Part shown: positions 9,038-36,842 of the stretch, piece after piece
Layout: each line of letters starts with the position of its first letter
How positions within the stretch are numbered: position 1 is the stretch's first letter
Notes under the pieces: model-generated
The model's database searches: none
Seen by the model: only the letters and a program-made list of their open reading frames with translations
Told to the model about the DNA's origin: nothing
NCBI GenBank assembly: GCA_043818155.1
Contig: JBDRGB010000011.1
Span: 1-58,544 of the forward strand
Source of the DNA: Candidatus Aenigmatarchaeota archaeon
Lineage (GTDB): Archaea; Aenigmatarchaeota; Aenigmatarchaeia; CG10238-14; SCSR01
Length of the DNA: 58,544 bases
Reading direction: 5' to 3'
Made by a program: the position numbers and the translations under genes

Positions 9038-9955
9038 TCAGTTCTTCAGCTTCACCTTCATGAAGTCGTACGCGACCTTCGTGTCCGGGAATATCCTGCG
9101 CGCCGCAGTTTCCATTTCGCGTATGTCCTCCTTCGTCGAGTAGCGCCGGCTCATGTGCGTGAGTATCAGCTGCTTGACGCCAGCATCGGCCGCCACCTTG
9201 GCCGCCTGCTTCACGTCGGCGTGCGCCTTGCCCTCGTCCTCCTCCAGAAAAGTACCGTCGTGTATGAGCAGATCCGCACCCTTTGCGAGCTTGACGACGT
9301 TCGCGCACGGCTTCGTGTCGCCCGAATACACGACCTTCAGCCCAGGCTTCACGTCCGCGACGTCCGCCAGCTTTATTCTTTTTCCTTTGACCGTCGCAAC
9401 GCCGTCCGCCTTCAGCTTCTTCATCCAAGCCCCGCGCCTGAGCCCGGCGGTCTTTATCTTCTCCAAATCGATCGTGTACCTATCCTTCTCCTTGAAAAGA
9501 TAGCCGACGCTCGGCACTGTGTGGTAGACTGGAATCGACCAGACCTCGTACTCGGCCGTCTCGTCGACCTTCGTTGCCTCCTCTCCGCTGAACGGGACGT
9601 TTATCGCTTCGACGGGGAAGCGCAATCCGAAATAGCCGAGGTCGAGTATGTTAGAGACGAAGCGTTCGGCCTCCGGCCCGAAAATTTGCAGCGGTTCCTT
9701 GCGCTTCTCAAGGTTCATGGTCTGTATGAGCGGAATGAGCCCGGAGAAGTGGTCGGCGTGCCAGTGCGATATGAATATCTTCTGCAGCTTCATGAAGCTT
9801 ATGCCCGAGCGCATAAGATGCTTCTGCGTCCCTTCCCCGCAGTCGAAAAGCAAAAAATGCCGCTCGTCCGAAGAGTACTCCAGTACAATCGCCGGATGGT
9901 TGCGATCGAGGCTCGGTATGCCCGAGACCGTGCCCAAAAACGTGATGTCTATCAT
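9038..9955 (-). CDS. rnz: ribonuclease Z (tRNA 3' endonuclease)
   Basis: Metallo-beta-lactamase motif ISHWHADH, MIDITFLGT N-terminus and C-terminal LTHMSRRY. ATG 9955 is preceded by GTGAT; the track start is GTG 9964. Confidence 0.85.
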   Translation of the reverse strand: MIDITFLGTVSGIPSLDRNHPAIVLEYSSDERHFLLFDCGEGTQKHLMRSGISFMKLQKIFISHWHADHFSGLIPLIQTMNLEKRKEPLQIFGPEAERFVSNILDLGYFGLRFPVEAINVPFSGEEATKVDETAEYEVWSIPVYHTVPSVGYLFKEKDRYTIDLEKIKTAGLRRGAWMKKLKADGVATVKGKRIKLADVADVKPGLKVVYSGDTKPCANVVKLAKGADLLIHDGTFLEEDEGKAHADVKQAAKVAADAGVKQLILTHMSRRYSTKEDIREMETAARRIFPDTKVAYDFMKVKLKN

Positions 9956-9968
9956 CCGAATCACTTGC

Positions 9969-11399
9969 CTAACTCAGGTTCTCCTTATCGAAATAATCTC
10001 GCAGGAAAACTCCAAACCCTTTGTCATTCTTCGCCAGTTTCGCTATTTTTTCGACATCCGCGGTGACCTGGAACCCGCGCGATATCTGCCTCGCGACGTG
10101 GCTCGGTACGCCTTTCGCCTCTAGCACCTTCAGCGAATCGCCGAGGCTGTCCCCGAGCTTCTCCTGCGCGGTCCTGAATCTGCGCTTCGTCTCCACGACC
10201 CAGAAACCGGCCTCCACGAACGGCCCGTTTATCGCGGAACGCTTGTATGTCTTCGCGAAGTTGCGAGCGCCCGTTTCGTCAAATACGCTCGGCCCGATTC
10301 GCTTGCGCACAGCCGGCAGTCTGCAGTTCTCCATCTCGATTATCACTGCGGCCAGCCTGTAGCCGTTCGTGTACACGTCTCGGCGCAGCACGTCGAAATC
10401 GTTCTCCCCAAGTATGGACTCCAGCCTTTGGCCCAGCCTCCGCATCTGCGGCCATAGTATGTCCGGCACTACGGCCGGCGGCTTGAAGCTCACGACAATC
10501 ACGCTCGTCTCCCTTTCCTGCACGACCGTCTTCAGCTCATTGGCCGACAGTGGCTTCTTCGGCTTCGGGAAGAACGCCTCCAGCGTGGGTTTCTCGAGGA
10601 AGCGCCTCGCGACCGAGCGCAGCTTGCAGAAGCTCGCAGGCGAGACGGCCGCGGCCGTGTTTCTGGTCCTGTCCGTCGGGTCGACGATTATCAGCGGCTG
10701 GTTCTTGAAAGCTTTCGCGAACTCGCGGTACTCCTCTTTTCTGTAGAAGTTCTCGATGTCGATTATCTCGCCCGCACGCCAACCCGCGACTGCTTTGAGT
10801 ATTCCCGCGAATTTACCATAACGGATTGTAAGCAGTTCGCAGACGTAGCCCGAGAAGCCTTCTGTCTTCGCGTCCGCTCCGTATACGCTGGCAGCAGTGC
10901 AGAACTGCTTCAGCAGCCGCACGTCGTTCGACATTTCCGCGGGTAGCTTCTTCTCGATGTAGCGCACGTGGAAGGGCGTGCGGTCGACCGACGACTTCAG
11001 TTGCTCCGTGGACTCGAGCTCGTAGCACGGCACAACGTCGATGTTCAGCCCGCGCACGCACCCGCCGGTGTACGGATGCTCGGCGTATTCGGTCGTAGCG
11101 CGGCCGCCGAGCTTTCGTATGACGTCCTTGCCTATCTGCAGCCCGAACTTTTCCAGCTTATCGCGCGTCAGGGACGGCTTGAAAAGTATGAAGAGGTCGA
11201 ACTCCATCTTTCCAGGAAGCCACGTGTCGCGCGTCAGGCTGCCGGCGATGATCGCGTACGCGTCGTGCTTCAGCGCCTCCTTGTTCGCCAGCTCGAGCGC
11301 GCGGGCCGCGAGCTTCTCCAGGCGCTCCCGTTCGGCCGTTTTCGGCACGACCTTCTTCACGGCTTTCTTCAATATCAGCTCCATCGAAGCCTTGGGCAT
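9969..11399 (-). CDS. cca: archaeal class I CCA-adding enzyme (tRNA nucleotidyltransferase)
   Basis: N-terminal nucleotidyltransferase core (IIAGSLTRDTWLPGKMEFDLFILF) with size and architecture of the archaeal CCA enzyme. ATG 11399 has a TATA-like CTTTATA 24-30 nt upstream, suggesting a leaderless transcript. The track start 11480 would overlap mtnP. Confidence 0.85.
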   Translation of the reverse strand: MPKASMELILKKAVKKVVPKTAERERLEKLAARALELANKEALKHDAYAIIAGSLTRDTWLPGKMEFDLFILFKPSLTRDKLEKFGLQIGKDVIRKLGGRATTEYAEHPYTGGCVRGLNIDVVPCYELESTEQLKSSVDRTPFHVRYIEKKLPAEMSNDVRLLKQFCTAASVYGADAKTEGFSGYVCELLTIRYGKFAGILKAVAGWRAGEIIDIENFYRKEEYREFAKAFKNQPLIIVDPTDRTRNTAAAVSPASFCKLRSVARRFLEKPTLEAFFPKPKKPLSANELKTVVQERETSVIVVSFKPPAVVPDILWPQMRRLGQRLESILGENDFDVLRRDVYTNGYRLAAVIIEMENCRLPAVRKRIGPSVFDETGARNFAKTYKRSAINGPFVEAGFWVVETKRRFRTAQEKLGDSLGDSLKVLEAKGVPSHVARQISRGFQVTADVEKIAKLAKNDKGFGVFLRDYFDKENLS

Positions 11400-11448
11400 A
11401 ATTAGTTTTTCGCGGCGGCTGTATAAAGGTTTGCCAGGACTGGTCCGG

Positions 11449-12270
11449 TCAGGCGGTCGCGTCCTTGAGCGCACGTCCACATCCGCAGCCGCGTTCAGCG
11501 GGGATTTTCTGAATTACGTCCGTCAGAATCATCCTGACCTTTCCGGCGCTCTTGCGCATGTTGGACAATATCTCGTCCATAGAGACCGGCTTCTCGGCCC
11601 AGACGTCATAGTCAGTTATGGTGTTTATCGACGCGTAGCAAAGCTCGGCCTCACGAGCTAGCTGGCATTCCGGCACGAGCGTCATACCTATCACGTCGCC
11701 GAAGTTGCGGTACATCCTGCTTTCGGCGCGCGTCGAGAATCTCGGCCCCTCAATGCAGACGTACGTGCCGCTCTCCTTGATGTCGATGCCCAGCGAACTG
11801 CCGGAACGCGCGAGCGCCATTCGCAGCTCCTTGCAGAACGGGTCGGCAGCGGAAACGTGGTAGACCGTGCCGCGGTTGAAGAACGTGTATTGCCTGGTCT
11901 TCGTGAAGTCGACGAACTGGTCGGCTATGACCACGTCGCCCGGCATGTATATTTCCTTGAGCGAGCCTACGGCGCCGGTCGCCAGTATGCGTTTCACGCC
12001 CAACTTCTTCAGCGCCCATATGTTCGCGCGGCTGTTCACCATGTGCGGCGGTATCGAATGCCCTGGCCCGTGTCGGTTGACGAAGGCTATGCGCCTGCCT
12101 GACATCTCGCCGACTATGATTTTGTCCGAGGGGTTGCCGAAAGGCGTGGATATCCGGATTTCCCGCACGGACTTTATGATTTGAGGATCGTAGACGCCGG
12201 TGCCGCCTATTATGCCGATCTCCGCGTCGGCCGTGGCCGCGAGGTCGACTATGGAGCTGACGAATTTCAT
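11449..12270 (-). CDS. mtnP: S-methyl-5'-thioadenosine phosphorylase
   Basis: PNP/MTAP family motifs IGIIGGTGVYDP, FVNRHGPGHSIPPHMVN and IGMTLVPECQLAREAEL, plus a C-terminal CGCG motif. Confidence 0.85.
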   Translation of the reverse strand: MKFVSSIVDLAATADAEIGIIGGTGVYDPQIIKSVREIRISTPFGNPSDKIIVGEMSGRRIAFVNRHGPGHSIPPHMVNSRANIWALKKLGVKRILATGAVGSLKEIYMPGDVVIADQFVDFTKTRQYTFFNRGTVYHVSAADPFCKELRMALARSGSSLGIDIKESGTYVCIEGPRFSTRAESRMYRNFGDVIGMTLVPECQLAREAELCYASINTITDYDVWAEKPVSMDEILSNMRKSAGKVRMILTDVIQKIPAERGCGCGRALKDATA

Positions 12271-21623: not shown

Positions 21624-21741
21624 GGTTGGCGGTCAAAGCAAGCAGGAAACATCTGTTCCCATTCCGAACACAGCAATTAAGATGCTTTGCGATATGGCGT
21701 GTACTGAGCATCTGCTCGGGAAACCCAGGACGCTGCCAACC
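21624..21741 (+). rRNA. rrf: 5S ribosomal RNA
   Basis: Terminal helix GGTTGGC/GCCAACC. Conserved CCCATTCCGAACACAG-CAATTAAG, GTACTG and GGGAAAC elements. About 118 nt. An AT-rich promoter-like tract lies upstream. Confidence 0.85.
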
Positions 21742-22008: not shown

Positions 22009-22081
22009 GCCTCGATGGTGTAGTGGCCTAGCATACAAGCCTGTCACGCTTGTGACGCGGGTTCAAATCCCGCTCGAGGCG
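22009..22081 (+). tRNA. tRNA-Asp (anticodon GUC)
   Basis: Acceptor GCCTCGA/TCGAGGC, anticodon stem CAAGC/GCTTG with loop CTGTCAC, T arm GCGGG-TTCAAAT-CCCGC, discriminator G. No encoded CCA. Confidence 0.9.
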
Positions 22082-22137: not shown

Positions 22138-22386
22138 GTGAAGGAAGTGGACATATCCAAGCACAAGCTGATGCCTAAGCACACCATCCTCGGCGATGCC
22201 GAGAAGCAGGAGCTTTTGAAAAGGTACAACATAACGTTGAACCATCTGCCGAGGATGCTTATCATAGACCCCATGTCGAAGGTACTGGACGCGAAGGCAG
22301 GCGATGTCGTGAAGATAGTCAGGGACAGCCCCACTGCGGGCAAGGCGGTGTACTACAGGGTCGTGGTGCGGGGCGCTTTCAAGTAG
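22138..22386 (+). CDS. rpoH: DNA-directed RNA polymerase subunit H (Rpo5)
   Basis: KHKLMPKHTILGDAEKQELLKRYNITLNHLPRMLIIDPMSKVLDAKAGDVVKIVR is the canonical RpoH sequence pattern. It is the first gene of the RNAP operon. Confidence 0.9.
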   Translation: MKEVDISKHKLMPKHTILGDAEKQELLKRYNITLNHLPRMLIIDPMSKVLDAKAGDVVKIVRDSPTAGKAVYYRVVVRGAFK

Positions 22387-22469
22387 ATAAACTTTCGCGC
22401 CGAAGACTGTTGAATCCGAAAAAACGAGAACAAGCCCGAACATCCAAGCGGGCGGCGAGATTGACGCAG

Positions 22470-24059
22470 ATGAGCATCATGGCCGGCAATGTAAGCACTA
22501 ACGTGACGCCCAACCGCAATTGGGAGATGTCGGCGTCCGACAACAACGAGCTTTTCCTCAGAATGCTGACATCATTCGTCAAGGAGCGCGGGCTCGTCAG
22601 ATTCCAGGTAGATTCTTATGACGACTTTATAACGCGCCGCATCCCCAAGATCCTCCGCGAGATAAAGGAAATCAAGCCCGAAGTCCCCGAGATAGGCGAG
22701 TTCAAGATAAAACTCGGGGACTTCCGCATAGGCAAGGAGAACTGGGGACCGTGGATAAAGGAGGCGGACGGGTCGGAGCGGAGGGTAATGCCCACTGAAG
22801 CCCGCATCCGCAACCTGACATACTCGTCGCCGATGTTCGTCGAGATGTCGCCTGTCATGAACGGCGTGGAGGGCGAGACGCTGTGGGTGAACTTCGGTGA
22901 CCTGCCGATAATGCTCAAGTCCAAGATATGCCCGCTTGCGGGCATGAGCGAGAATGATCTCGTGGCCGCCGGCGAGGACCCGGACGACCCAGGCGGCTAC
23001 TTCATCGTGAACGGCACGGAAAGGATACTCGTGCTCGTCGAGGAGATCGCGCAGAACAAGGTCATAATAAGCTCGGTGAGCACGGGGAGCGTTTCGCAGA
23101 TAGCGCGCATACACTCCGAGAAGGACGGCTACGTGCAGCGCCACATAATAGAGCGCAAGAACAACGGCAGCATAACCATCAGCTTTGCGAACGTGAACAA
23201 GCTGCCCATCGCCGTGCTGCTCAAGGCGCTCGGCCTGGAGAAAGACAAGGACATAGTCAACGTCATATCGAGCGACCCGGAGGTGCAGGAGGAGTTCTAC
23301 GCGAACCTGTACGAGGCCGACGTTTCGACCGCGAACGACGGCTTGGACAAGATAGGCCTGCACATAAAGATACCCCAGAAGGAATACCGCATGGAGCGCG
23401 CCACGAAGCTGGTGGACAGGTACCTGCTCCCGCACCTCGGCCAGGACTCGTCGAACAGGATGGAAAAATCTATATTCCTCGCCAAGGCCATAGGCAAGCT
23501 TCTCAAGCTGCATCTCGGCAGGATAGCGGAGGACGACCTTGACCATTATTCGAACAAGCGCTTGCGACTGTCGGGCGACCTGATGGAGATACTGCTCCGC
23601 TCGATACTGCTCGGCAAATGGGGGCTGATAACCAGGATAACGTACAACTACCAGAAGCTCACCAAGCGGGGCCGGGTGCCGCCGCTGCAGGCAATCGTGG
23701 AGTCGAACGTGCTGACTAACCAGCTCGTGTCCGCGCTCGCGATAGGCAGCTGGGTCGGCGGACGCACGGGCGTAAGCCAGCGGCTGGAGCGCGGCAGCTA
23801 CATAAAGACGATGTCCCACATGCGGAACGTGCTTTCGCCGCTCACGTCCACGCAGGAGCACTTCCAGGCGCGCGAGCTGCATCCGACGCACTGGGGCAAG
23901 CTCTGCACGAGCGAGACGCCCGAGGGCGCGACGATCGGGCTGAGGAAGTATCTGGCGATAATGGCCGAGGTCACCAAGGGCGCGAACGAGAAGGAAGGCA
24001 AGGCGTTGCAGGCGATGTTGAAGAAGGGCATCGTGCCGGCGGAGAAGCTGATAAAATAA
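22470..24059 (+). CDS. rpoB2: DNA-directed RNA polymerase subunit B'' (N-terminal half of Rpo2)
   Basis: Collinear with the N-terminal half of Rpo2 (GLVRFQVDSYDDFI, GGYFIVNGTERILV, ERGSYIKTMSHMRNV...HPTHWGKLCTSETPEG). Start uncertain: TTG 22410 in the track, ATG 22470, 22479 or 22527. Confidence 0.9.
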   Translation: MSIMAGNVSTNVTPNRNWEMSASDNNELFLRMLTSFVKERGLVRFQVDSYDDFITRRIPKILREIKEIKPEVPEIGEFKIKLGDFRIGKENWGPWIKEADGSERRVMPTEARIRNLTYSSPMFVEMSPVMNGVEGETLWVNFGDLPIMLKSKICPLAGMSENDLVAAGEDPDDPGGYFIVNGTERILVLVEEIAQNKVIISSVSTGSVSQIARIHSEKDGYVQRHIIERKNNGSITISFANVNKLPIAVLLKALGLEKDKDIVNVISSDPEVQEEFYANLYEADVSTANDGLDKIGLHIKIPQKEYRMERATKLVDRYLLPHLGQDSSNRMEKSIFLAKAIGKLLKLHLGRIAEDDLDHYSNKRLRLSGDLMEILLRSILLGKWGLITRITYNYQKLTKRGRVPPLQAIVESNVLTNQLVSALAIGSWVGGRTGVSQRLERGSYIKTMSHMRNVLSPLTSTQEHFQARELHPTHWGKLCTSETPEGATIGLRKYLAIMAEVTKGANEKEGKALQAMLKKGIVPAEKLIK

Positions 24060-24071
24060 TAAAGTAATTTT

Positions 24072-27000
24072 GTGAAGGTTGATGGGATGGCGAGGAGCGC
24101 GGGCAGGAAAGAGGCCACGGGTACAGAGGCGCCGGCCGGAAACACAGTGGACGTGTTCCTGGACGGAAACTACGTGGGTGTGACCAGCGACCCGGCCGGG
24201 TTCGTGAACGAGATAAGGCAGGCCAGGCGCAGCGGCCAGCTCTCGGACCAGGTGAACATATGCCATTACACACAGTTCAACGAGATACGCATCTTCTCAG
24301 ACTCCGGCCGTGTGCGGAGGCCGGCCATAGTGGTGGAGAACGGCCGCTCGAAGCTTACGGACGACATCGCTAACAAGGTGAAGGCCGGGGAGCTGGGATG
24401 GTCGGACTTGTTCAGGATGGGAGTCGTGGAGTACCTGGACACGGACGAGGAGGAGAGCGCATACATAGCGCTCAAACCGGAGAACCTGACCCCGGAGCAC
24501 ACGCACGTTGAGCTGGACCCGTCGATAATACTCGGGCTGTCCGCGTCGTTCATCCCGTTCACGGAGTACAACCGAGGCGACCGCGTGAACTACGGGGCGA
24601 AGATGGTGGGGCAGAGCATAGGCGTGTTCGCGACGAACTACCTGAACCGCGTTGACACCAAGGCGAACGTGATGGTCTACCCGCAGAGGCCGGTGGTGCG
24701 GACGCATGGTCACAGGATAATAAGCTACGACAAACATCCGAACGGCTCGAACGTGGTGGTCGCAGTCTGCTGCTTCGACGGCTACAACATGGAGGACGCC
24801 ATAGTGATAAACGCCAGCTCGATACAGAGCGGGCTGTTCTGGTCGATGATGACGCGCACGTACGAGGCCGAGCAGAAGAGGTACATGGGCGGTCAGGAGG
24901 ACATAATAGGCATACCCGAGCCCGGGGTCCGCGGCTACGCGGGCGAGGACATGTACAAGCACCTGCCGGAGGACGGCATAATCGACCCGGAGGTCATAGT
25001 CGGCTCGGATTCGATTCTTATAGGCCGCATATCGCCACTGCGCTTCCTCGGAACCATGGACCAGTTCATAACCGGCGTGGAGAACATACGCGAGACCTCG
25101 GTCAAGCTGAGGCACGAGGACAACGGGGTCGTGGACCGGGTGTTCGTAAGCGAGACGACCGACGGCACGAAGCTGATCAAGGTGATTATACGCGACATGA
25201 AGATACCCGAGATAGGCGACAAGTTCGCGAGCCGCCACGGCCAGAAGGGGGTAGTGGGACTGATCGTGCCGCGGGAGGACATGCCGTTCACCGAAGACGG
25301 GGTAGTGCCGGACATAATCTTCAACCCGCACGGGATACCGTCGAGGATGACGATGGGGCAGCTGCTGGAGCTCATCGGCGGCAAGCTCGGCGCGGTCGCA
25401 GGCCGCATAATAAGCGCCCCGCCATTCAACGCCATAAAGGAGGCCACGATGAGGTCGGAGCTCGAGTCGTGCGGGTACAGGAACGACGGGAAGGAGACGA
25501 TGTACGACGGACGCACGGGGCGGAGGTTCGACGCGCAGATATTCATGGGCAGCTGCTTCTACCAGAGGCTCGACCACCTCGTTTCGAACAAGATACACGC
25601 AAGGTCGCGCGGACCCGTGGCCCTGCTGACGAAGCAGCCGACCGAAGGAAGGAGCAAGGAAGGCGGGCTCAGGCTGGGCGAGATGGAGAAGGACTGCCTC
25701 ATCGCGCACGGCGCGGCGCTGACCCTGAAGGAAAGGTTCGATTCCGACAAGACGACCGTGCCCATCTGCCTCGAGTGCGGGAACGCGGCCATCTACGACA
25801 AGATCAAGAACCGCCGATACTGCCCGATATGCACTGCATCGAAGATCGTGGTCATAGAGATGAGCTACGCGTTCAAGCTCATGCTCGACGAGCTGAAGAG
25901 CATGATGATTTATCCGAAGATTGTCGTCAAGCCTGGGGAGTCGCTCGTGAGCATGATAGAGTTCGGCGTCCTGAATCCGGACATCATAAAGAAGATGTCC
26001 GTGGCGCGCATAACGAAGACGGAGCTGTACGACCAGGAAGGATATCCGATAGAGGGCGGCCTGATGGACCCGAGGCTGGGAGTGGTCGACCCAGGCGTGC
26101 GATGCCGTGTCTGCGGCGGGAGCGTAGGCGAATGCCAGGGCCACTTCGGCATACTGGACATGACTCGGCCGATAGTGCACGTCCACTACGCCAAGTTCCT
26201 GTTCAGCCTGCTGAAGCTGTTCTGCGGCAAGTGCAGCCGGATACTCATGAACGAGGCCGAGATACAGACGGTGAAGGACAAGAAGTACAAGATCAAGGAC
26301 GTGGCGAAGCTCATACACAAGAAATGCCCGTACTGCGGCTCGGAACAGTCGAAGCTCAAGTTCATCAAGCCGTACACGTTCGTCGAGGACAAGGGCACGC
26401 TCAACGCGTCGGACTTGCGCGAAAGGCTCGTGAACATCCCGGACGACGACCTGAAGACCATCGGGGTGACGATAAGGCCGGAAAGCCTCGTGATAACGCT
26501 CCTGCCGATATCGCCCGTCACGGTGCGGCCGTCGATCACGCTCGAGACCGGCGAACGGTCGGAGGACGACCTCACCCACAAGCTCGTGGACATCGTGCGC
26601 ATCAACGAGCGGCTGCGCGAGAACATAGACCTTGGTGCGCCCGACTTCATCATCGAGGATCTGTGGGAGCTGCTCCAGTATCACGTCTCGACTTATTTTG
26701 ACAACGAGATATCCGGCGTGCCCCCGGCAAGGCACCGATCGGGCCGGATACTCAAGACGCTCTCGCAGAGGCTGAAGACGAAGGAGGGCCGCTTCCGCGG
26801 GAACCTCGCCGGGAAGCGCGTCAACTTCTCCGCGCGCACGGTGATCAGCCCGGACCCGATGATAAACATAGACGAGGTCGGGGTGCCGGAGTCAATCGCT
26901 CGCGAGCTGACGGTGCCCGTGCGCGTGAACGACGGCAACAAGGAGGAGCTGAAGAAGATAGTGATGGCCGGATCGGAGCAGATTGCCGGCGCGAACTATG

Positions 27001-28469
27001 TCATACGCTCGGACGGCCACAGGAAGAAGGTCACTAACTTCAACAAGGAGGACATCACGAACGAGCTGGACGTCGGCTACGTAGTGGAGCGCCACATACG
27101 CGACGGCGACATCGTGCTTTTCAACCGGCAGCCGAGCCTGCATAGGATGAGCATAATGGCGCACAGGGTCAGGGTCATGCCGTTCAGGACGTTCCGGCTC
27201 AACGTCGCGGTCTGCCCGCCGTACAACGCGGACTTCGACGGCGACGAGATGAACCTCCACGTGCCCCAGGCCGAGGAGGCGCAGGCCGAATCGAGGTTGC
27301 TGATGGCCGTGGAGAAGAACATACGCAGCCCGCGCTTCTCTGGGCCCATCATCGGCGCGCACCGAGACTACATTTCCGGGCTGTACGCGCTGACGCACGG
27401 CGAGCGCGAGTTCAGCCGCGAAGAGTTCGTGCAGCTGATACGCGCGGTAGATTCCGACATGGAGATACCGGCGAAGCGCACGATGACCGGTAAGGAAATA
27501 TTCAGCCTGTTCCTGCCGAAGGGCCTGAACATCGAACACAAGGCCAAGTCGTGCATGGGATGCGAGACGTGCACCAAGGCGAACTGCAAGCACGACGCGT
27601 ACGTGGTCATAGAGAACGGGAAGCTAGTCAAGGGCACTATAGACGGCGCAGCCGTCGGCGCGTTCTCCGGAAAGGTAATAGACAAGATAGAGAAGGAATA
27701 CGGCTCGACCGTTGTGAAGAAGTTCATCTACGACGTCACCAGGCTCGCGGTGCACACGATAATGACGTCCGCGTTCTCGATAAGCATATCCGACCAGGAC
27801 CTGCCTGACGTCGCGAAGGCCGAGATACAGCACATCATAGGCCAGGTGAGGAAGGACGTCGACGGGTTCATAGGCGAGTACGAGCGCGGGGAGATAAAGA
27901 TATTGCCAGGCCGCACGGCCAAGGACAGCCTCGAGGCCCACATAAAGAAGAGGCTGAACAATGCCATAGACGAAGTGGAGGACATAATCGCCAAGCACGC
28001 GAAGGACAGCTTCACGCTTATGATGGCCAAGTCGGGCTCGCGCGGCAGCCTTGTCAACCTCGTCCAGACCGCGGCGATGGTCGGCCAGGAGATGGTCATG
28101 GGCGAGAGGATTCAGCGCGGGTACTTCGAGCGCACCTTCCCGCACTTCAAGCGCGGGGACATCAGCCTCGAGTCGCGCGGCTTCGTCGGCCGCGGGTTCA
28201 AGGACGGGCTCACGCCCTTCGAGTTCTTCTTCGACGCGATAAACAGCCGCGAGTCGCTGATGGACAAGTCCCTGAAGACCAGGCACTCGGGATACATGGA
28301 GCGCAGGCTAGTGGGCGCGCTGCAGGACCTGAAGGTCGAGTACGACTGCACAGTGCGCGACAGCGCGAAGCACATCGTGCAGTTCGTGCCTGGCGAGGAC
28401 AACCTCGACCCGTCGAAGGTGATGCGAGGCGGCTTGAACCTCAAGTCTATAGCGGACGGCATAAAGTGA
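24072..28469 (+). CDS. rpoB1-rpoA1: fused RNA polymerase subunits B' (residues 1-627) and A' (from Met628, nt 25953) in one open frame
   Basis: The B' part has GDKFASRHGQKGVVG, NPHGIPSRMTMGQLLE, Zn-ribbon CLECG..CPIC and the C-terminal YAFKLMLDELKSM. It continues without a stop through IYPKIVVKPGESLVS into the A' N-terminus MIEFGVLNPDIIKKMS, Zn motif CRVCGGSVGECQGHFG, and catalytic NADFDGDEMNLH. Confidence 0.85.
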   Translation: MKVDGMARSAGRKEATGTEAPAGNTVDVFLDGNYVGVTSDPAGFVNEIRQARRSGQLSDQVNICHYTQFNEIRIFSDSGRVRRPAIVVENGRSKLTDDIANKVKAGELGWSDLFRMGVVEYLDTDEEESAYIALKPENLTPEHTHVELDPSIILGLSASFIPFTEYNRGDRVNYGAKMVGQSIGVFATNYLNRVDTKANVMVYPQRPVVRTHGHRIISYDKHPNGSNVVVAVCCFDGYNMEDAIVINASSIQSGLFWSMMTRTYEAEQKRYMGGQEDIIGIPEPGVRGYAGEDMYKHLPEDGIIDPEVIVGSDSILIGRISPLRFLGTMDQFITGVENIRETSVKLRHEDNGVVDRVFVSETTDGTKLIKVIIRDMKIPEIGDKFASRHGQKGVVGLIVPREDMPFTEDGVVPDIIFNPHGIPSRMTMGQLLELIGGKLGAVAGRIISAPPFNAIKEATMRSELESCGYRNDGKETMYDGRTGRRFDAQIFMGSCFYQRLDHLVSNKIHARSRGPVALLTKQPTEGRSKEGGLRLGEMEKDCLIAHGAALTLKERFDSDKTTVPICLECGNAAIYDKIKNRRYCPICTASKIVVIEMSYAFKLMLDELKSMMIYPKIVVKPGESLVSMIEFGVLNPDIIKKMSVARITKTELYDQEGYPIEGGLMDPRLGVVDPGVRCRVCGGSVGECQGHFGILDMTRPIVHVHYAKFLFSLLKLFCGKCSRILMNEAEIQTVKDKKYKIKDVAKLIHKKCPYCGSEQSKLKFIKPYTFVEDKGTLNASDLRERLVNIPDDDLKTIGVTIRPESLVITLLPISPVTVRPSITLETGERSEDDLTHKLVDIVRINERLRENIDLGAPDFIIEDLWELLQYHVSTYFDNEISGVPPARHRSGRILKTLSQRLKTKEGRFRGNLAGKRVNFSARTVISPDPMINIDEVGVPESIARELTVPVRVNDGNKEELKKIVMAGSEQIAGANYVIRSDGHRKKVTNFNKEDITNELDVGYVVERHIRDGDIVLFNRQPSLHRMSIMAHRVRVMPFRTFRLNVAVCPPYNADFDGDEMNLHVPQAEEAQAESRLLMAVEKNIRSPRFSGPIIGAHRDYISGLYALTHGEREFSREEFVQLIRAVDSDMEIPAKRTMTGKEIFSLFLPKGLNIEHKAKSCMGCETCTKANCKHDAYVVIENGKLVKGTIDGAAVGAFSGKVIDKIEKEYGSTVVKKFIYDVTRLAVHTIMTSAFSISISDQDLPDVAKAEIQHIIGQVRKDVDGFIGEYERGEIKILPGRTAKDSLEAHIKKRLNNAIDEVEDIIAKHAKDSFTLMMAKSGSRGSLVNLVQTAAMVGQEMVMGERIQRGYFERTFPHFKRGDISLESRGFVGRGFKDGLTPFEFFFDAINSRESLMDKSLKTRHSGYMERRLVGALQDLKVEYDCTVRDSAKHIVQFVPGEDNLDPSKVMRGGLNLKSIADGIK

Positions 28470-29656
28470 TTTCGGAGTTGCATGAGATGGCTGATGAAAA
28501 GGAGAAGGAAGTGGACGCGACCGAAGCGGCTCTCGAGGAGGCGTTCCCGCAGTCCATGCTCGACGAGATAGAGAGCCTGTCGAAGGAGCGCAGGTTCACG
28601 AAGGAACAGAAAGAGAAGTTCGTGGAACGCGCGAATGTCGAGTACCTCAAGAGCAAGTTCGAGCCTGGCGAAGTCATAGGAATAATCGCGGCGCAGAGCA
28701 TATCCGAGCCCGCGACGCAGATGACGATGCGGACCTACCACTTCGCAGGTTCCGCGGGCGTGAAGGTCACGTACGGCCTGCCGAGGCTGATAGAGATTTT
28801 CGACGCGAAGCGCGTGCCAGAGACGCCGGTGATGACGCTTTTCCTCAAGCACGAGTACAACAACATGGACGACGCGAAGAAGGTCGCGGAGGGCATAATA
28901 GAGAAGAGCGTCACGGACGTGTCGAAGCGCATCGCCATCAACCTGGCGGACAACACGATAGAGATAGAGCTGGAGGACGCCCGCAAGGCCGGGAAGATCG
29001 AGACGGTCGTGAAGGAGGCGCTCGGGACCGCGAAGGAGATAGACAAGGTCAAGGCGTCGTCGAAGGGCGTTGCGATAGCCGCGAAGCCGGACGTGTCGAT
29101 GAAGGACCTGCAGAAGATACGCGAGCGCGTGATGGCCGTGCACGTGAACGGGCTGAAGGGCGTGAGCAATGCCGTCATCCGGAGGGAGGGCGATGACTGG
29201 ATGATAAGCACGATAGGCTCCAACCTGGCCGAGGTCCTGAACATAAAGGAAGTGGACGACACGCGGACCTACACGAATGACCTGCACGAGACGAAGCAGG
29301 TGCTGGGCATAGAGGCGGCGCGCAGCCTGATAATAAGCGAGTCCTTCAGTACGCTGCAGCAGCAGGGCCTCGACGTCGACCGCCGGCACCTGATGCTAGT
29401 AGGGGACATAATGACGATGTCGGGCGACATCCGCTCGATAGGGAGGTACGGCGTCGCCGGCGCCAAGAGCTCGATACTCGCGCGCGCGGCCTTCGAGGAG
29501 ACGATAAAACACCTCGTGCGCGCCTCGATACGCGGCGAGGTCGACAACTTCGAGGGAATATTCGAGAACGTTATGATAGGGCAGCTTATACCGTCCGGCA
29601 CGGGCATGTTCGAGCTTATCGCGAAGTTCGAGGACGTCAAGCCGGAGGAGACGTAA
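28466..29656 (+). CDS. rpoA2: DNA-directed RNA polymerase subunit A'' (C-terminal part of Rpo1)
   Basis: GEVIGIIAAQSISEPATQMTMRTYHFAG trigger-loop region. GTG 28466 overlaps the upstream stop (GTGA); the alternative ATG is at 28487. Confidence 0.9.
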   Translation: MISELHEMADEKEKEVDATEAALEEAFPQSMLDEIESLSKERRFTKEQKEKFVERANVEYLKSKFEPGEVIGIIAAQSISEPATQMTMRTYHFAGSAGVKVTYGLPRLIEIFDAKRVPETPVMTLFLKHEYNNMDDAKKVAEGIIEKSVTDVSKRIAINLADNTIEIELEDARKAGKIETVVKEALGTAKEIDKVKASSKGVAIAAKPDVSMKDLQKIRERVMAVHVNGLKGVSNAVIRREGDDWMISTIGSNLAEVLNIKEVDDTRTYTNDLHETKQVLGIEAARSLIISESFSTLQQQGLDVDRRHLMLVGDIMTMSGDIRSIGRYGVAGAKSSILARAAFEETIKHLVRASIRGEVDNFEGIFENVMIGQLIPSGTGMFELIAKFEDVKPEET

Positions 29657-29750: not shown

Positions 29751-30026
29751 ATGGCAACGAAGGAAGAGTTGAAGGACGCCGTGCAGGGCGCGGTCAAGGC
29801 CGGCACGGCCGTTCTGGGCTACAAGGAGTCCCTGAAACTAATAAGGAACGGGTCGCCGAAGATGGCGGTCGTGGCGAACAACGCGCCCGGCGCGAGGATG
29901 CTCGAGCTCGAGCACGACGCGAAGGTCTCGGGCGTGCGCCTTGAGGTGTTCGACGGCGACAGCAAGGAGCTCGGGCTCATATGCGGGAAGCCCTTCCCGG
30001 TTCTAGTTCTTGCCATACAAAAATGA
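29751..30026 (+). CDS. rpl30e: 50S ribosomal protein L30e (eL30)
   Basis: 91 aa, GTAVLGYKESLKLIRNGSPKMAVVANNAP...ELGLICGKPFPVLVLAI. Conserved position after rpoA''. A GTGAT Shine-Dalgarno-like motif lies upstream. Confidence 0.85.
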   Translation: MATKEELKDAVQGAVKAGTAVLGYKESLKLIRNGSPKMAVVANNAPGARMLELEHDAKVSGVRLEVFDGDSKELGLICGKPFPVLVLAIQK

Positions 30027-30055
30027 CGCTTTGACGCGGCCTGGTTGAAATCGTT

Positions 30056-30481
30056 ATGAAACTGAACTTCGACACCGAGACCATACGCCTCATGACGCTC
30101 TTCGAGAACATTCTCCACGTGCACGTCAAGGACTGCGTGGTGGACGCGGAAAGCAACTCCATATGCCTCGTGATAGAGGATGGCATGATCGGGCTGGCGA
30201 TCGGCAAGAACGGGGCCAGCGTCAAGCACGCCGAGAAGATCGTCGGCAGGCAGATAAAGCTCTTCGAGTTCTCAAGCAACCTCGTCGAGTTCGTGAAGAA
30301 GATGATACCGCAGACGAACTCCGTAAAGGTGCGCAGCGAGGACGACGGCCGCGTCGTGGTCGAGGTGCACGTCGAGAAGAAGAACAGGCCGATGGTCATC
30401 GGCCGCGATGGAAGGAATTTAAAGCTGTACAAAGAATTGCTTAAGAGAAATCACAGGGCGGACGACCTTATTATAAGGTAG
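30056..30481 (+). CDS. nusA: archaeal NusA-like protein (two KH domains)
   Basis: Two KH GxxG motifs (IGKNGASV, IGRDGRNL). Size and position between rpl30e and rps12 are typical. Confidence 0.85.
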   Translation: MKLNFDTETIRLMTLFENILHVHVKDCVVDAESNSICLVIEDGMIGLAIGKNGASVKHAEKIVGRQIKLFEFSSNLVEFVKKMIPQTNSVKVRSEDDGRVVVEVHVEKKNRPMVIGRDGRNLKLYKELLKRNHRADDLIIR

Positions 30482-30517
30482 GCCGCATAAAAATAAAAAA
30501 GTCGGTGTCGTGATCAC

Positions 30518-30943
30518 ATGGCAAGGGGGGAATACTCCGCGAGGAAGCTGCACAAGACGCGGCAGAAGTTCAGGTGGAAGAGCACGAAGTACAAGAGCCG
30601 CAAGCTCCGGCTCTGGAGGAAGGACCCGTTCGAGGGCGCGCCGCAGGTGCGGGGCATAGTGCTGGACAAGCGCGTGATGGAGCAGAAGAAGCCTGCCTCA
30701 GGGCTGGTCAAGTGCGTGCGCGTGCAGCTGATAAAGAACAACATCCAGGTGACGGCCCACGTGCCGGGGAACCACGCGATAGAGAAGATCAGCGAGCACG
30801 ACGAGGTCATCGTCGAAAAGATCGGCGGCGGGCAGGGAGGGCCGAAGGGGTCGATGGTCGGGGTGAAGTACAAGGTATCCAAGGTGAACGGCGTTTCGCT
30901 CGCGGAGATAGTCGCGGGCAGGAAGCAAAAGCCGACAAGGTAA
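30518..30943 (+). CDS. rps12: 30S ribosomal protein S12 (uS12)
   Basis: [39 protein letters not shown]... is the canonical uS12 pattern. Confidence 0.92.
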   Translation: MARGEYSARKLHKTRQKFRWKSTKYKSRKLRLWRKDPFEGAPQVRGIVLDKRVMEQKKPASGLVKCVRVQLIKNNIQVTAHVPGNHAIEKISEHDEVIVEKIGGGQGGPKGSMVGVKYKVSKVNGVSLAEIVAGRKQKPTR

Positions 30944-30958
30944 AGTTAGCGTGATTTT

Positions 30959-31558
30959 ATGCAAATGAAACTTTTCGACAAGTGGCCGACCGACGAGGTC
31001 AAGGTCGCGGACAAAGGCCTCGAGCAGTACATATGCCTGAAGCCGGCTATCGTGCCGAGGAGCAGCGGCAGGTTATCGAGCTTGCAGCACGGCAAGTCCA
31101 AGATAAACATAATCGAGCGGCTGATAACGAGGATGATGGTGCCCGGCCATCGCAGCCGCAAGCACGTGATATCCTCGGACGTGACCACGGGCAAGTACAC
31201 AAAGCAGTACAACACCATAAAGAAGGCGTTCGAGACAATCGAGTCCAGGACGAAGAAGAACCCGGTGGAGGTGCTCGTGCGCGCGATCGAGAACGCGGCG
31301 CTGCGTGAGGAGATCGCGGCCTATCAGGTCGGCGGCATCGTAGTGCGCCGCGCGGTAGTGACGAGCCCCCAGCGGAGGCTGGACCTCGCGCTGCGGACGA
31401 TAACGCAGGCCGCCTACAGGAAGAGCTTCGGTAAGGGGGTGAAGATAGCGGACGCGCTGGCGAACGAGCTGCTTGCCGCTGCGGAGAACGACGCGTCCAG
31501 GTCCGAAGCCGTGAAGGAGCGCGAGCGCATAGAGCGCGAGGCCGAGGGCGCGAGGTAG
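30959..31558 (+). CDS. rps7: 30S ribosomal protein S7 (uS7)
   Basis: KLFDKWPTDEVKVADKGLEQYI N-terminus and NPVEVLVRAIENAALREE core. Conserved position. Confidence 0.9.
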   Translation: MQMKLFDKWPTDEVKVADKGLEQYICLKPAIVPRSSGRLSSLQHGKSKINIIERLITRMMVPGHRSRKHVISSDVTTGKYTKQYNTIKKAFETIESRTKKNPVEVLVRAIENAALREEIAAYQVGGIVVRRAVVTSPQRRLDLALRTITQAAYRKSFGKGVKIADALANELLAAAENDASRSEAVKERERIEREAEGAR

Positions 31559-31585
31559 GCCCATGCCTGTCCTGATGTGATTTTT

Positions 31586-33793
31586 ATGGCAAACGTCGAC
31601 ACGATGGAGCGGGTCAAAGAGGTCATGACAGACCCGTCGCGCATACGCAACGTCGCGACAAGCTCGCACGTACACCACGGGAAGACAACGCTCACCGACA
31701 ACCTGATGGGCGGGGCGGGCATGCTCTCGGACAAGGTCGTCGGCGACGTCGAGACCGGGATGTTCACGTGGTTCGACGAGCAGGAGCGGCAGCGCCAGCT
31801 GACCATCTACGGCGCGAACGTGAGCATGGTGCACGAATACGAGGGCCGCGACTACCTGATTAACCTGATGGACACACCAGGGCACGTGGACTTCGGCGGC
31901 GACGTCACGCGCGCGATGCGGGCGGTGGACGGCACCATAGTGCTCGTGTGCGCGGTCGAGGGGCTGATGCCGCAGACCGAGACGGTCTTCAGGCAGGCGC
32001 TGCGGGAGCGCGTCAAGCCTGTGCTATTCATAAACAAGGTAGACCGCCTGATTCGCGAGCTGAAGCTCAGCCCTGAGATGATGCAAGAGCGCTTCATGGA
32101 ATGGATAGAAGAGGTCAACAGGCTCATACGCAAGTACGCCGACGATGATTACAAGACCAAGTGGATGGTAAACGTTAACGACGGTACGGTCGCGTTCGGC
32201 TCCGCCACCAGGAAATGGGCCATATCCATACCCTACATGCAGAAGACGGGCATAACTTTCAAGCAGATTATAGACATGGTGAACGAAGACAAGGACGACG
32301 AGCTCGCGAAGCTCGCGCCGATGCACAAGGTAGTACTGGACATGATTATCAAGCACCTGCCGGACCCGAAGGAGGCGCAGGCGTACAGGGTGCCGAAGAT
32401 ATGGAAGGGCGACCTGGACAGCGATCTCGGGAAGGCGATGCTCGGCTGCGACCCCGACGGCAAGCTCGCGATGATAATAACGAAGATGGTGCCCGACACG
32501 CACGTCGGCTTCGTCGCAGCAGGCCGCATATTCTCCGGTCGCATAGCCAGGGGCAAGGACGTGCACCTGATGGGTCTGAAGAAGGACGAGAAGCTGCAGC
32601 AGGTGGCCGTATACAAAGGACTGCAGCGCATACCAGCTGACGAGATAGTCGCGGGCAACATCGCGGCCATAGTGGGCATATCCGACGCGTTCACTGGCGA
32701 GACGGTGTGCGACGCCGGCACGGAGATCGAGCCGTTTGAGGAAATCAAGCATTTGTTCGAGCCGGTCGTCACGAAGTCGGTCGAGCCGAAGAACGCGATG
32801 GACCTGCCTAAGCTGGTCAGCACGCTGAAGCAGCTGAGCCGCGAGGACAACACCCTGAAGATCAAGATAAACCAGGAGACCGGCGAGTACCTGATATCCG
32901 GTCTGGGCGAGCTGCACATCGAGTCGAAGGTCGAGCGCAAGCTGAAGGACATGGGGCTCGATGTGGAGATGTCCAAGCCTATAGTGGTGTACAGGGAGGC
33001 GATATTCAAGCAGTCGCCCGAGGTCGAAGGGCGGTCGCCGAACAAGCACAACAAGTTCGTGATTGTGGCGGAGCCCGTGGACGAGGCCGTGATGAAGGCG
33101 ATGAACGAGGGCGCCATACCGTCCGAGTTCGAGCAGAAGAAGAAAAAGACGGACGTGACGGAGAACCTCGTGAAGCTCGGGATGAAGAGCGACGAGGCGA
33201 GGGACCTGGTATTCATACACAACAAGTGCATGCTCTTCGACGATACGAAGGGAGTGCAGTACTTGAACGAGGTGATGGAACTCGTGAAGGAGGCGTTCAC
33301 GAGCATGATGGACGAGGGGCCGCTCTGCAAGGAGCCGTGCACTGGCGTCAAGATAGTGCTCAACGACGCCGAGCTGCACGAGGACCCGGTGCACAGGGGG
33401 CCGGGCCAGATCATACCGGCGTTCCGCGCTACGCTGAAGAAGGCGCTGATGAAGTCGGACGTCACGCTGCTCGAGCCGAAGCAGAGCATACGCATAGACA
33501 TACCCGAGGAGCTGATAGGCGCCGTGACGCGCGAGGTGGAGAACCGGCGCGGCCAGGTGCTCGACATATCGATAGAGCGCGGCGCGGCCATAATCACGGC
33601 GAAGATGCCCATAGCGGACATGTTCGGGTTCGACGCCACGCTCAAGTCGGTCACGAGCGGACGCGGCTTCTACAGCATGATAGAGATAGTCTTCGAGAAG
33701 CTGCCGGCCGACCTCCGCGACAAGGCCATCGATGTCGTGCGCAAGCGCAAGGGCCTGGCCGAACTAGTGACGACGGAGGAGGACGAGGCGTAG
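31586..33793 (+). CDS. fusA: translation elongation factor aEF-2
   Basis: GTPase motifs HHGKTTLTD, DTPGHVDF and NKVDR. Diphthamide-loop region EDPVHRGPGQIIPA. ATG 31586; the track start is GTG 31577. Confidence 0.92.
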   Translation: MANVDTMERVKEVMTDPSRIRNVATSSHVHHGKTTLTDNLMGGAGMLSDKVVGDVETGMFTWFDEQERQRQLTIYGANVSMVHEYEGRDYLINLMDTPGHVDFGGDVTRAMRAVDGTIVLVCAVEGLMPQTETVFRQALRERVKPVLFINKVDRLIRELKLSPEMMQERFMEWIEEVNRLIRKYADDDYKTKWMVNVNDGTVAFGSATRKWAISIPYMQKTGITFKQIIDMVNEDKDDELAKLAPMHKVVLDMIIKHLPDPKEAQAYRVPKIWKGDLDSDLGKAMLGCDPDGKLAMIITKMVPDTHVGFVAAGRIFSGRIARGKDVHLMGLKKDEKLQQVAVYKGLQRIPADEIVAGNIAAIVGISDAFTGETVCDAGTEIEPFEEIKHLFEPVVTKSVEPKNAMDLPKLVSTLKQLSREDNTLKIKINQETGEYLISGLGELHIESKVERKLKDMGLDVEMSKPIVVYREAIFKQSPEVEGRSPNKHNKFVIVAEPVDEAVMKAMNEGAIPSEFEQKKKKTDVTENLVKLGMKSDEARDLVFIHNKCMLFDDTKGVQYLNEVMELVKEAFTSMMDEGPLCKEPCTGVKIVLNDAELHEDPVHRGPGQIIPAFRATLKKALMKSDVTLLEPKQSIRIDIPEELIGAVTREVENRRGQVLDISIERGAAIITAKMPIADMFGFDATLKSVTSGRGFYSMIEIVFEKLPADLRDKAIDVVRKRKGLAELVTTEEDEA

Positions 33794-33906
33794 GACGGCG
33801 GCCGACCCAAACATATTTAAATGTCTTCAATAATTAGTATAGGTATAAAACCCGGACGAAACGGCAATCGGCGAAATTAACATTGATTCGGAGGTAAAGA
33901 TATAAC

Positions 33907-35190
33907 ATGCCAGCAAAACCGCACATCAACATGATGACAGCAGGGCACGTGGACGCGGGCAAGTCCACGCTACTCGGTAGACTGTTGTACGACTCGGGCG
34001 TAATACGCGAAGAAGAGATGAGGAAGCTCAAGGAGCTAGCGACCGAGATGAAGAAGGAGACGTTCGAGTTCGCCTACGCGCTTGACACGACCGCCGAAGA
34101 GCGAAAGCGCGGCCTCACGATAGACCTCATGCACAGGCCGCTGGAGACGAAGAAGTGGTACTTCACTGTCATAGACGCGCCCGGGCACAGGGACTTTGTG
34201 AAGAACATGATAACGGGCGCTTCGCAGGCCGACTTGGCAGTGCTCGTCGTTTCAACTAAGACGGGCGAGGGCGTGCAGGAGCAGACCAAGGAGCACGCGT
34301 GGCTGTTGCGTGTGCTGGGCGTGCCGCAGATAATAGTCGTGCTGAACAAGATGGACACTTGCAACTTCGACGAGAAGAGGTTCAACGAGGTCAAGGACGA
34401 GGTGACCAAGCTTCTGAAGGGCATCGGTTATAAGATAGAGGAGATACCGTTCGTCCCCACTTCCGGCTACACGGGCGACAACGTTGTGAAAAAGTCGGAC
34501 AATATCCCTTGGTACAAGGGCGGGACGCTCGTCGAGACCCTGGACCAGCACGCGAAGGAACCGGAAAAGCCGACCGACAAGCCGCTGAGGCTGCCGGTGC
34601 AGGACGTGTTCACAATAACGGGCATAGGAACCGTGCCGGTCGGACGCGTCGAGACGGGCATCATAAAGACGAACGACAAGATAGTGTTCATGCCTTCGGG
34701 CGCAATCGGCGAGGTCAAGTCGATCGAGGTGCACCACCAGCAGATACCGCAGGCAATCCCGGGCGACAACGTCGGGTTCAACGTGCGCGGCATAGGGAAG
34801 AACGACGCGCACCGCGGGGACGTGGTAGGGCACCTGGACAACCCGCCGAGCGTGGCGAAGGAGTTCACGGCCCAGATAGTGGTGCTGCAGCACCCGACGG
34901 TCATAACGGCAGGCTACACGCCTGTGTTCCACTGCCACACCGCATCGGTCGCGTGCACGATAACCGAGATAATCGCGAAGATAGACCCGAAGACGGGCGC
35001 GGTCGCGCAGGAGAAGCCGGACTTCATCAAGACGGGCGACGCGGCGCGCGTGAAGGTCGTGCCGACCAAGCCGTTCGTCATAGAGAAGCAGTCCGAGTTC
35101 CCGGCGCTGGCCAAGTTCGCGGTCCGCGACATGGGCACCACGGTCGCGGCGGGCGTGTGCCTGGACCTCGTGAAGGCGGAGAAGGCTTAA
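33907..35190 (+). CDS. tuf: translation elongation factor aEF-1 alpha
   Basis: [23 protein letters not shown] and NKMD motifs. GGAGGT Shine-Dalgarno upstream. Confidence 0.95.
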
Positions 35191-36693: not shown

Positions 36694-36842
36694 TGGGCTC
36701 AATGGGATTCGAACCCATTTGTGGCTCGCATACGCATTCCTGCGCACGCGCGTGACCACTGGTTTTTACGCCCGATGCGCTTTCGTCCCACGCTCAGCGG
36801 CCTTATAAGACCAGCGCTCTAACCAAACTGAGCTATGAGCCC
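36694..36842 (-). tRNA. tRNA-Ile (anticodon UAU) with two intervening sequences (about 39 nt at 37/38 and about 35 nt between variable loop and T stem)
   Basis: The reverse complement reads GGGCTCA TA GCTC AGTTTGGTTA GAGC G CTGGT CTTATA [39 nt] A ACCAG TGGTC [35-nt hairpin ACGCGCGTGCGCAGGAATGCGTATGCGAGCCACAA] ATGGG TTCGAAT CCCAT TGAGCCC A. The exons sum to a normal 75-nt cloverleaf. No encoded CCA. Confidence 0.75.

Follow-up and report, generated by a model that had tools for sequence, protein, structure and literature searches.

In the 58,544-nucleotide contig JBDRGB010000011.1 of a Candidatus Aenigmatarchaeota archaeon (GenBank assembly GCA_043818155.1; this whole stretch of DNA is called the window below), the RNA polymerase genes rpoB' and rpoA' lie in a single uninterrupted open reading frame (ORF) of 1,465 codons. 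Its product would join the C-terminal half of the second-largest subunit, B', to the N-terminal part of the largest, A' (Rpo1N). From the conservation of the junction, we consider the fusion to be genuine and evolutionarily stable, a real gene fusion that is lineage-wide but patchy in Aenigmatarchaeota, and we give this reading a probability of about 0.85. The frame was first noticed in a prediction made from the letters of the window alone (hereafter, the original prediction), which likened it to the rpoB-rpoC fusion known in Helicobacter and proposed that it would hold the two largest catalytic subunits together. Both the domain content and the conservation of the frame support that proposal.

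rpoB' and rpoA' share one reading frame

The ORF listing of the window places the fused gene at 24072..28469 (+), from a GTG start to a TGA stop at 28467-28469, with no earlier in-frame stop. The gene call in NCBI starts at ATG 24087 and yields a protein of 1460 amino acids (P0001, 100% identical to the window protein); this ATG is likely the real start, giving 1,460 residues. The translation reads ...MSYAFKLMLDELKSMMIYPKIVV-KPGESLVS-MIEFGVLNPDIIKKMS... without a stop, so that the conserved B' C-terminus (…CPICTASKIVVIEMSYAFKLMLDELKSMMIYPKIVV) passes through KPGESLVS into the conserved A' N-terminus (MIEFGVLNPDIIKKMSVARITK…). The features of the fused gene are the following:

24087..25928 (+): B' part (Rpb2 domains 4-7), ending in the conserved ...SYAFKLMLDELKSMMIYPKIVV; Rpb2_7 ends at residue 619 (Pfam)
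25767-25832 (+): C-terminal four-cysteine zinc ribbon of B' (motif coordinates)
25929..25952 (+): the link KPGESLVS (protein- and nucleotide-level junction alignments)
25935..25940 (+): GGGGAG, an apparent weakened relic of a GGAGG ribosome-binding site (raw sequence; comparison with unfused relatives)
25944..25946 (+): CTC (Leu625) at the ancestral A' start-codon position (junction alignment; Pfam Rpb1 domain 1 begins here)
25947..25955 (+): GTG (Val626) and ATG (Met628), possible unconserved internal starts (raw sequence, junction alignments)
25956..28466 (+): A' part (Rpb1 domains 1-4 and the start of domain 5), with the N-terminal strand IEFGVL (Pfam, translation)
26103-26144 and 26223-26336 (+): zinc sites of A' (motif coordinates)

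The Pfam domains are those of two subunits laid end to end. Rpb2 domains 4, 5, 6, and 7 (PF04566, PF04567, PF00562, PF04560) follow one another in residues 28-619, Rpb1 domains 1-5 (PF04997, PF00623, PF04983, PF05000, PF04998) cover residues 625-1444, and the gap between the two sets is only five residues. The B' portion has its zinc ribbon (CLEC...CPIC, residues 566-587), followed by the strand MSYAFKLMLDELKSMMIYPK (residues 597-616). Thus, as a B' subunit, the protein has the expected domains, zinc ribbon, and SYAFKL...YPK strand and lacks only its own stop after YPK. As an A' subunit, it has Rpb1 domains 1-4, the beginning of domain 5, and an intact catalytic NADFDGDEMN motif (residues 1052-1061, 27225-27254); the zinc sites are intact as well. 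The order, second-largest then largest subunit in one uninterrupted ORF, is that of natural two-subunit fusions. The product would be one polypeptide of approximately 1,460 residues (about 165 kDa by our own estimate) composed of B', a link of about eight residues, and A'; the tryptic peptide spanning its junction is IVVKPGESLVSMIEFGVLNPDIIK.

The ORF listing, the translation, and the Pfam domains all confirm the single 1,465-codon frame of the original prediction. The raw sequence also agrees with the in-frame codons that it gave around the junction (GTG 25947, AGC 25950, ATG 25953, ATA 25956, GAG 25959), with the out-of-frame position of the stop triplets there (TGA 25948, TGA 25954, TAG 25957), and with its placement of GGGGAG at 25935-25940 and of Met628 at 25953-25955. 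The tail KPGESLVS, described as having 11 residues, actually has 8.

The fusion recurs across Aenigmatarchaeota

The whole ORF was used as query against 5.8 billion protein clusters, and 104 clusters carrying both Rpb2 and Rpb1 domains were retrieved, namely P0001, which is the window protein, and 103 others. Their identity to the window protein ranges from 89% down to 51% within Aenigmatarchaeota, with 45% for one outlier, and in the alignment the junction is uninterrupted in all 104. Of 80 loci from GTDB species representatives, retrieved with a junction query, 43 contain the in-frame fusion without a stop. The carriers, in both clusters and genomes, are almost all Candidatus Aenigmatarchaeota. 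Alignment of the junction with relatives had been suggested as a check in the original prediction; it revealed that a junction without a stop is common to many species.

The architecture of the window, B'' followed by B'-A' and A'', was found in about 29 of the 43 fused representatives. In the other 14, an unsplit B is fused to A', giving proteins of 1,909-1,924 residues. A census of 1.84 billion representative proteins, made with a 612-residue junction query, showed that at 50% clustering the junction is spanned only by P0058 (an Aenigmatarchaeota fusion), P0157, and P0191. The last two are distant proteins (2214 and 1665 amino acids, respectively; 38% identity), and P0157 has Rpb2 domains 1, 3, 6, and 7 and Rpb1 domains 1, 2, 3, and 5 in one chain, so that B, A', and A'' appear to be all fused. 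In public databases, the fused proteins of 1,430-1,920 residues are annotated simply as "subunit A'" or "subunit B".

Outside the phylum, several metagenome-assembled genomes (MAGs) of Desulfurococcaceae (Thermoproteota) encode a whole-B-A' fusion of 2,045-2,057 residues (P0103 cluster; L081:4001-10153), in the context rpoH, B-A', A''. It is 45% identical to the window protein, and its origin is thus separate from that of the Aenigmatarchaeota fusion. Two other fused loci carry labels from outside the phylum, L016 on a 9 kb contig labelled Heimdallarchaeota and L020 on a 4.7 kb contig labelled uncultured bacterium; both fall inside the Aenigmatarchaeota clade on the tree described below, and these short contigs are probably mis-binned. 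Inspection by eye only gave no link between habitat and fused state, as MAGs from hot springs and from groundwater or lakes occur in both states.

The link derives from the former intergenic boundary

The origin of the link could be read by comparison with unfused relatives from the clade of the window (L010, L072-L080). In these, the boundary has the form TAT CCn AAA ATn GTn nTn AAG GAG GAG TAA A ATG CTA GTn GAT AAA ATA GAG TTC, the B' stop is located 4-9 codons past YPK, and the A' ATG comes one to three bases after that stop. The Lys-Glu-Glu tail of the unfused B' is encoded by AAGGAGGAG, which is at the same time a GGAGG ribosome-binding site just before the A' start codon. In the fused locus L007 the same stretch, AAG GAA GAG GAG CAG CTG GTT GAC AGG ATT GAA TTC, is translated throughout. 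The acidic residues of most fused links (KEE, NEE, DEE; in the window PGE, from GGG GAG) thus go back to the earlier ribosome-binding site, and the residues x-L/M-V-x-x that follow represent the old start codon and the first residues of A'. Read in this manner, KPGE in the window corresponds to the C-terminal tail of the unfused B' (K-E-E, then stop), and SLVS to what used to be spacer, start codon, and the beginning of A'. The ancestral start position is occupied by ATG in unfused and some fused relatives, by TTG in L002, L003, and L005, and by CTC (Leu625) in the window, a codon unable to initiate translation.

Between the YP and I-x-F anchors, the fused links measure 11-14 codons, as much as the B tail and the A' N-terminus together in unfused relatives; no spacer has been inserted. 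We therefore envisage an ancestor in which rpoB' ended a few bases before the start of rpoA', and in which the B' tail AAG GAG GAG would have served as the ribosome-binding site of A'. Mutation of the stop codon, and usually of the start codon too, to sense codons would then have allowed the ribosome to read through. In a second clade, the site of the stop codon can be compared directly, with GGT TAA ATG ATA GAA in the unfused L056 and GGA AAA ATG ATT GAT in the fused L046; judging from these codons, a single point mutation of the stop (TAA to AAA) would be enough for a fusion of the L046 type.

The junction fits the fold of the clamp

PDB 3QQC chain A is the solved structure that best matches the 612-residue junction fragment (E = 6e-124), and it aligns without gaps across the junction of the window (IRPKLNLSEGGKVIGSIEFGIL against IYPKIVVKPGESLVSMIEFGVL). 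This chain is an engineered single-chain clamp of Pyrococcus furiosus in which B 1053-1115, A' 3-318, and A'' 334-371 are connected through short linkers of Gly, Ala, and Ser; the soluble protein formed a stoichiometric complex with Spt4/5 and could be crystallized (Martinez-Rucobo et al. 2011, PMC3094117). Its tether between B and A' has the length of the natural link, and a clamp joined in this way is thus experimentally able to fold and function.

An AlphaFold2 model of the same fragment, based on an alignment of 69 sequences, predicts a strand at 294-300 (IYPKIVV), a six-residue loop (KPGESL), and a strand at 307-314 (VSMIEFGV), with predicted local distance difference test (pLDDT) values of 78-90 at the junction and a target-normalized template modeling score (TM-score) of 0.78 against 3QQC_A. 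In the assembled enzyme, the strand of the B C-terminal zinc ribbon and the N-terminal strand of A' adjoin one another within the same module, the clamp. As the two strands are neighbors, the short link would merely close a loop between them and leave the fold intact. The expected consequences would be obligatory 1:1 synthesis of the two parts and co-translational assembly of the clamp.

Alternative explanations

The original prediction allowed that a one-base assembly indel could create the appearance of a fusion. An artefact of assembly or sequencing, whether such an indel or a stop codon wrongly called where rpoB' ends, might be suspected because the window comes from a MAG and because some of its close relatives (L072-L080) have A' in a frame different from that of B'. 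Against this, the in-frame junction occurs in the 104 clusters and 43 species representatives, from various studies and assemblers (NCBI, JGI, ENA, and Logan assemblies). The fused or unfused state is also consistent within clades, and the link sequences carry both synonymous and non-synonymous differences. Since the junction is conserved across so many species, studies, and pipelines, an indel is excluded as the source of the fusion, and the artefact explanation as a whole is in effect already refuted. A different possibility is that the fusion is made and a protease then cuts the link, leaving a mature enzyme with ordinary separate B' and A'. The sequence alone is compatible with this and nothing speaks directly in its favor, whereas the link is short (about six loop residues) and variable, contains no conserved cleavage motif, and in the AlphaFold2 prediction forms an ordered hairpin loop that packs into the clamp; moreover, the engineered equivalent was stable enough to crystallize. 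We regard such processing as quite improbable.

More weight is due to the proposal that A' is also, or even mainly, made separately in this organism, from GTG 25947 or ATG 25953, with fusion and free A' coexisting. GGGGAG (25935-25940) lies 6 bases upstream of the GTG and 12 upstream of the ATG, and among 44 fused loci an ATG is kept near the ancestral start in 12 and a GTG or TTG only in another 10. The remaining 22, however, have no start codon in the link, so in half of the fused loci A' would be made only as part of the fusion. These include the closest relative of the window (L001, 91-94% identical over the junction region and the B' C-terminus), whose junction GCG CTC GTC AGC CGC ATC GAG TTC has neither ATG, GTG, or TTG nor a ribosome-binding site. 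Five-base cores of ribosome-binding sites were present at 23 of 37 unfused and only 5 of 44 fused junctions (Fisher p = 2e-6, for loci that are not phylogenetically independent), as expected if these sites decayed after fusion. Independent initiation at Met628, as suggested in the original prediction, may occur in this one genome, where GGGGAG lies upstream, but the residue is not conserved; the other fused proteins have R, K, S, or D in its place. Met628 was rejected as a conserved internal start, since the Met is unique to the window among the aligned relatives. The ancestral start in the window is now CTC. The N-terminal strand of A', I-x-F-G-h-L (I-E-F-G-V-L in the window), is conserved also in species without an upstream start codon in the link, where it has to be translated from the B' start. 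Finally, fused genes have no B' stop, and therefore every B' chain would be attached to A', barring proteolysis or recoding, and any free A' would be surplus. Separate production of A' in this organism is accordingly a minority possibility, and we infer that active polymerase incorporates the fusion protein as such.

Several points weigh against a genuine and functional fusion, or soften the evidence for it. All the fused genomes are metagenome-assembled, and the fusion protein is a prediction from their genes. The survey covered this locus, and a second, unfused copy of rpoB' and rpoA' may exist elsewhere in the genomes. In the window itself, the weak GGGGAG may allow some free A' to be made. 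The comparison of fused and unfused junctions pools related loci, and its statistics lack phylogenetic independence. Outside the clamp, with the catalytic part of B' out of context, the AlphaFold2 model is unreliable (mean pLDDT 66), and only its junction was used. The count of gains and losses given below comes from a neighbor-joining tree and is rough.

The boundary has changed state repeatedly

A neighbor-joining tree of the 80 loci and the window was based on the concatenated B, A', and A'' sequences, of which 2,213 columns with good occupancy were used. On it, there are at least four separate fused groups, composed of L034 and L040; of L057 with L062, L063, and L065; of a ten-species clade with whole B; and of the large split-B clade to which the window belongs, in which three or four unfused groups are nested. 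On this rough tree, Fitch parsimony required 8 changes between the fused and unfused states (7-9 over 60 bootstrap trees) and 5 between split and whole B. The B''/B' split is itself unstable, since whole-B species are nested among close relatives with split B (L072, L073, and L076 versus L074, L077, L078, and L080).

Because single mutations between stop and sense codons may suffice, switching would be cheap in both directions. In L011, for instance, the ATG is kept (…GAT AAA ATG TCA…), and a single AAA to TAA change would re-separate the genes. Gains or losses of the trait seem to have recurred, some of them plausibly through one point mutation each, and the fusion is therefore probably nearly neutral, a structurally permitted arrangement with little or no selective advantage and not a strongly selected innovation. 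Severinov and colleagues reportedly found in 1997 that an artificial beta-beta' tether in E. coli gives an active enzyme, and H. pylori reportedly tolerates the experimental separation of its fused rpoB and rpoC; both fit this near-neutral reading.

Taken beyond the original prediction, these comparisons make the trait phylum-wide but patchy, in a lineage where B is split too, and identify the link as a remnant of a ribosome-binding site, stop, spacer, and start.

Genomic context of the fused gene

In the window, the order of the operon is rpoH, rpoB'', [rpoB'-rpoA'], rpoA'', L30e, NusA, S12, S7, EF-2, and EF-1alpha, and its other gene boundaries are ordinary. The neighboring genes are:

22138..22386 (+): rpoH (Rpo5), first gene of the RNA polymerase operon (Pfam RNA_pol_Rpb5_C, E = 5e-30)
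22410..24059 (+): rpoB'', N-terminal half of B, Rpb2 domains 1-3 (ORF listing, translation, Pfam Rpb2_1, Rpb2_2, Rpb2_3)
28466..29656 (+): rpoA'', a separate ORF with the rest of Rpb1 domain 5 (ORF listing, Pfam)
29751..35190 (+): downstream canonical cluster of L30e, NusA (KH domains), S12, S7, EF-2, and EF-1alpha (Pfam)

Three ORFs (22410-24059, 24072-28469, and 28466-29656) stand where a canonical split-B operon has four for B'', B', A', and A''; the large-subunit set, B'' + B' + A' + A'' in the canonical case, becomes B'' + (B'-A') + A''. The rpoB'' gene ends in TAA TAA at 24057-24062, 25 bases before the B' ATG 24087. Its ORF has a mechanical TTG start at 22410 and opens with a low-complexity basic stretch (22410-22480, +); the true start is probably downstream, an ATG at about 22470-22481. 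For rpoA'', the likely start is ATG 28487, after GGAG at 28474-28477.

In six related species (L017, at 9044-11587, and L010, L018, L057, L062, and L065), rpoA'' contains about 1.3-1.9 kb of extra sequence, inserted in frame around A'' residue 88. The insert of L017 is an intein that includes a LAGLIDADG homing endonuclease (Pfam Intein_splicing, LAGLIDADG_3); the rpoA'' of the window has no such insert. Directly upstream of rpoH are a lone 5S rRNA gene (21625-21741, +), with no 16S or 23S rRNA gene near it, and a tRNA gene (22009-22081, +). Another tRNA match, at 36694-36842 (-), is 149 bases long, a length that suggests the presence of an intron.

Comparison with known polymerases

Fused rpoB-rpoC genes, encoding beta-beta', are known in Helicobacteraceae and Wolbachia, as stated in PMC7483510, which cites Lane and Darst (2010) and Zakharova et al. 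(1999). They resemble the archaeal gene in that one ORF encodes the second-largest and then the largest subunit, in that the beta/B C-terminus is joined to the beta'/A' N-terminus where the two meet in the clamp, and in that the fusion is conserved across a lineage. The Aenigmatarchaeota fusion, however, is of independent origin and involves archaeal, RNA polymerase II (Pol II)-like subunits. In the window B is split and only its C-terminal half is fused, while A'' is separate; the archaeal link is much shorter and derives from a former ribosome-binding site, stop, and start; and the archaeal state has toggled many times within the phylum. Common descent with the Helicobacter and Wolbachia fusion was ruled out, since the sequences are archaeal and so are their nearest unfused relatives; the best solved-structure matches to the junction fragment are enzymes of Thermococcus, Pyrococcus, and Sulfolobus. 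The Aenigmatarchaeota fusion is thus an analogue of the bacterial one and not a member of it.

The P. furiosus clamp of PDB 3QQC also has the B C-terminus joined to the A' N-terminus by a very short linker, but it is a laboratory construct of clamp fragments (436 residues) that includes a piece of A'', neither a natural gene nor a whole subunit. With the canonical split-B operon of methanogens and haloarchaea, rpoH-rpoB''-rpoB'-rpoA'-rpoA'' (for example L067, Methanobacterium), the window shares the gene order, the downstream genes, and the B''/B' split between Rpb2 domains 3 and 4; it differs in having three ORFs instead of four, the B' stop and the A' start being gone. The Desulfurococcaceae gene has the same kind of junction and the same operon context (rpoH, B-A', A''), but B is unsplit, the link is longer (…RLVIRDIRIGDTPLANQIVGIKF…), and the phylum is Thermoproteota.

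In the literature searched, splits and fusions of the archaeal large subunits are regarded as rare, and the only ones mentioned are the A'/A'' split, the B''/B' split, and a secondary re-fusion of A' with A'' in Pacearchaeota (Da Cunha et al. 2017, PMC5484517). The Pacearchaeota case likewise involves altered large-subunit gene boundaries in a small-genome DPANN lineage, but there the partners are both halves of a single ancestral subunit (A), whereas the fusion in the window joins two different subunits (B and A). In our loci, A' and A'' appear joined in frame, with no stop, in L064, L070, and L071 (labelled Nanohalarchaeota, Pacearchaeota, and uncultured archaeon, respectively), and the Pacearchaeota joining agrees with PMC5484517. 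No description of an archaeal B-A' fusion, in Aenigmatarchaeota or in Desulfurococcaceae, was found in the full-text literature searched, which is not proof of absence.

Implications

Given the bacterial and engineered precedents, the fusion would be mechanistically unsurprising. What seems new is that a Pol II-like enzyme has its two largest subunits tethered and, in addition, a split B, an arrangement that is apparently undescribed. We lean toward the view that Aenigmatarchaeota and, independently, Desulfurococcaceae provide the first described natural Pol II-type polymerases with covalently joined homologues of Rpb2 and Rpb1. On the same balance of evidence, the fusion would be the sole source of both subunits, and the B'-A' boundary would have flipped 7-9 times in one phylum, in some instances plausibly by a single stop or start mutation, with B''/B' changing alongside (5 times).

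The archaeal tree has been rooted and ordered with the help of such splits and fusions, treated as rare genomic changes, but within one phylum they can be frequent and reversible. Because they change so often and in both directions, the B'-A' and B''/B' states would be poor deep markers and useful shallow ones. Marker-gene pipelines that expect separate RpoB and RpoA' may also mis-handle Aenigmatarchaeota. The fusion further illustrates how a ribosome-binding site, stop, spacer, and start can turn into a peptide linker. As a natural archaeal tethered clamp, it could bear on how a Pol II-like enzyme assembles, opens its clamp, and binds Spt4/5 and TFE.

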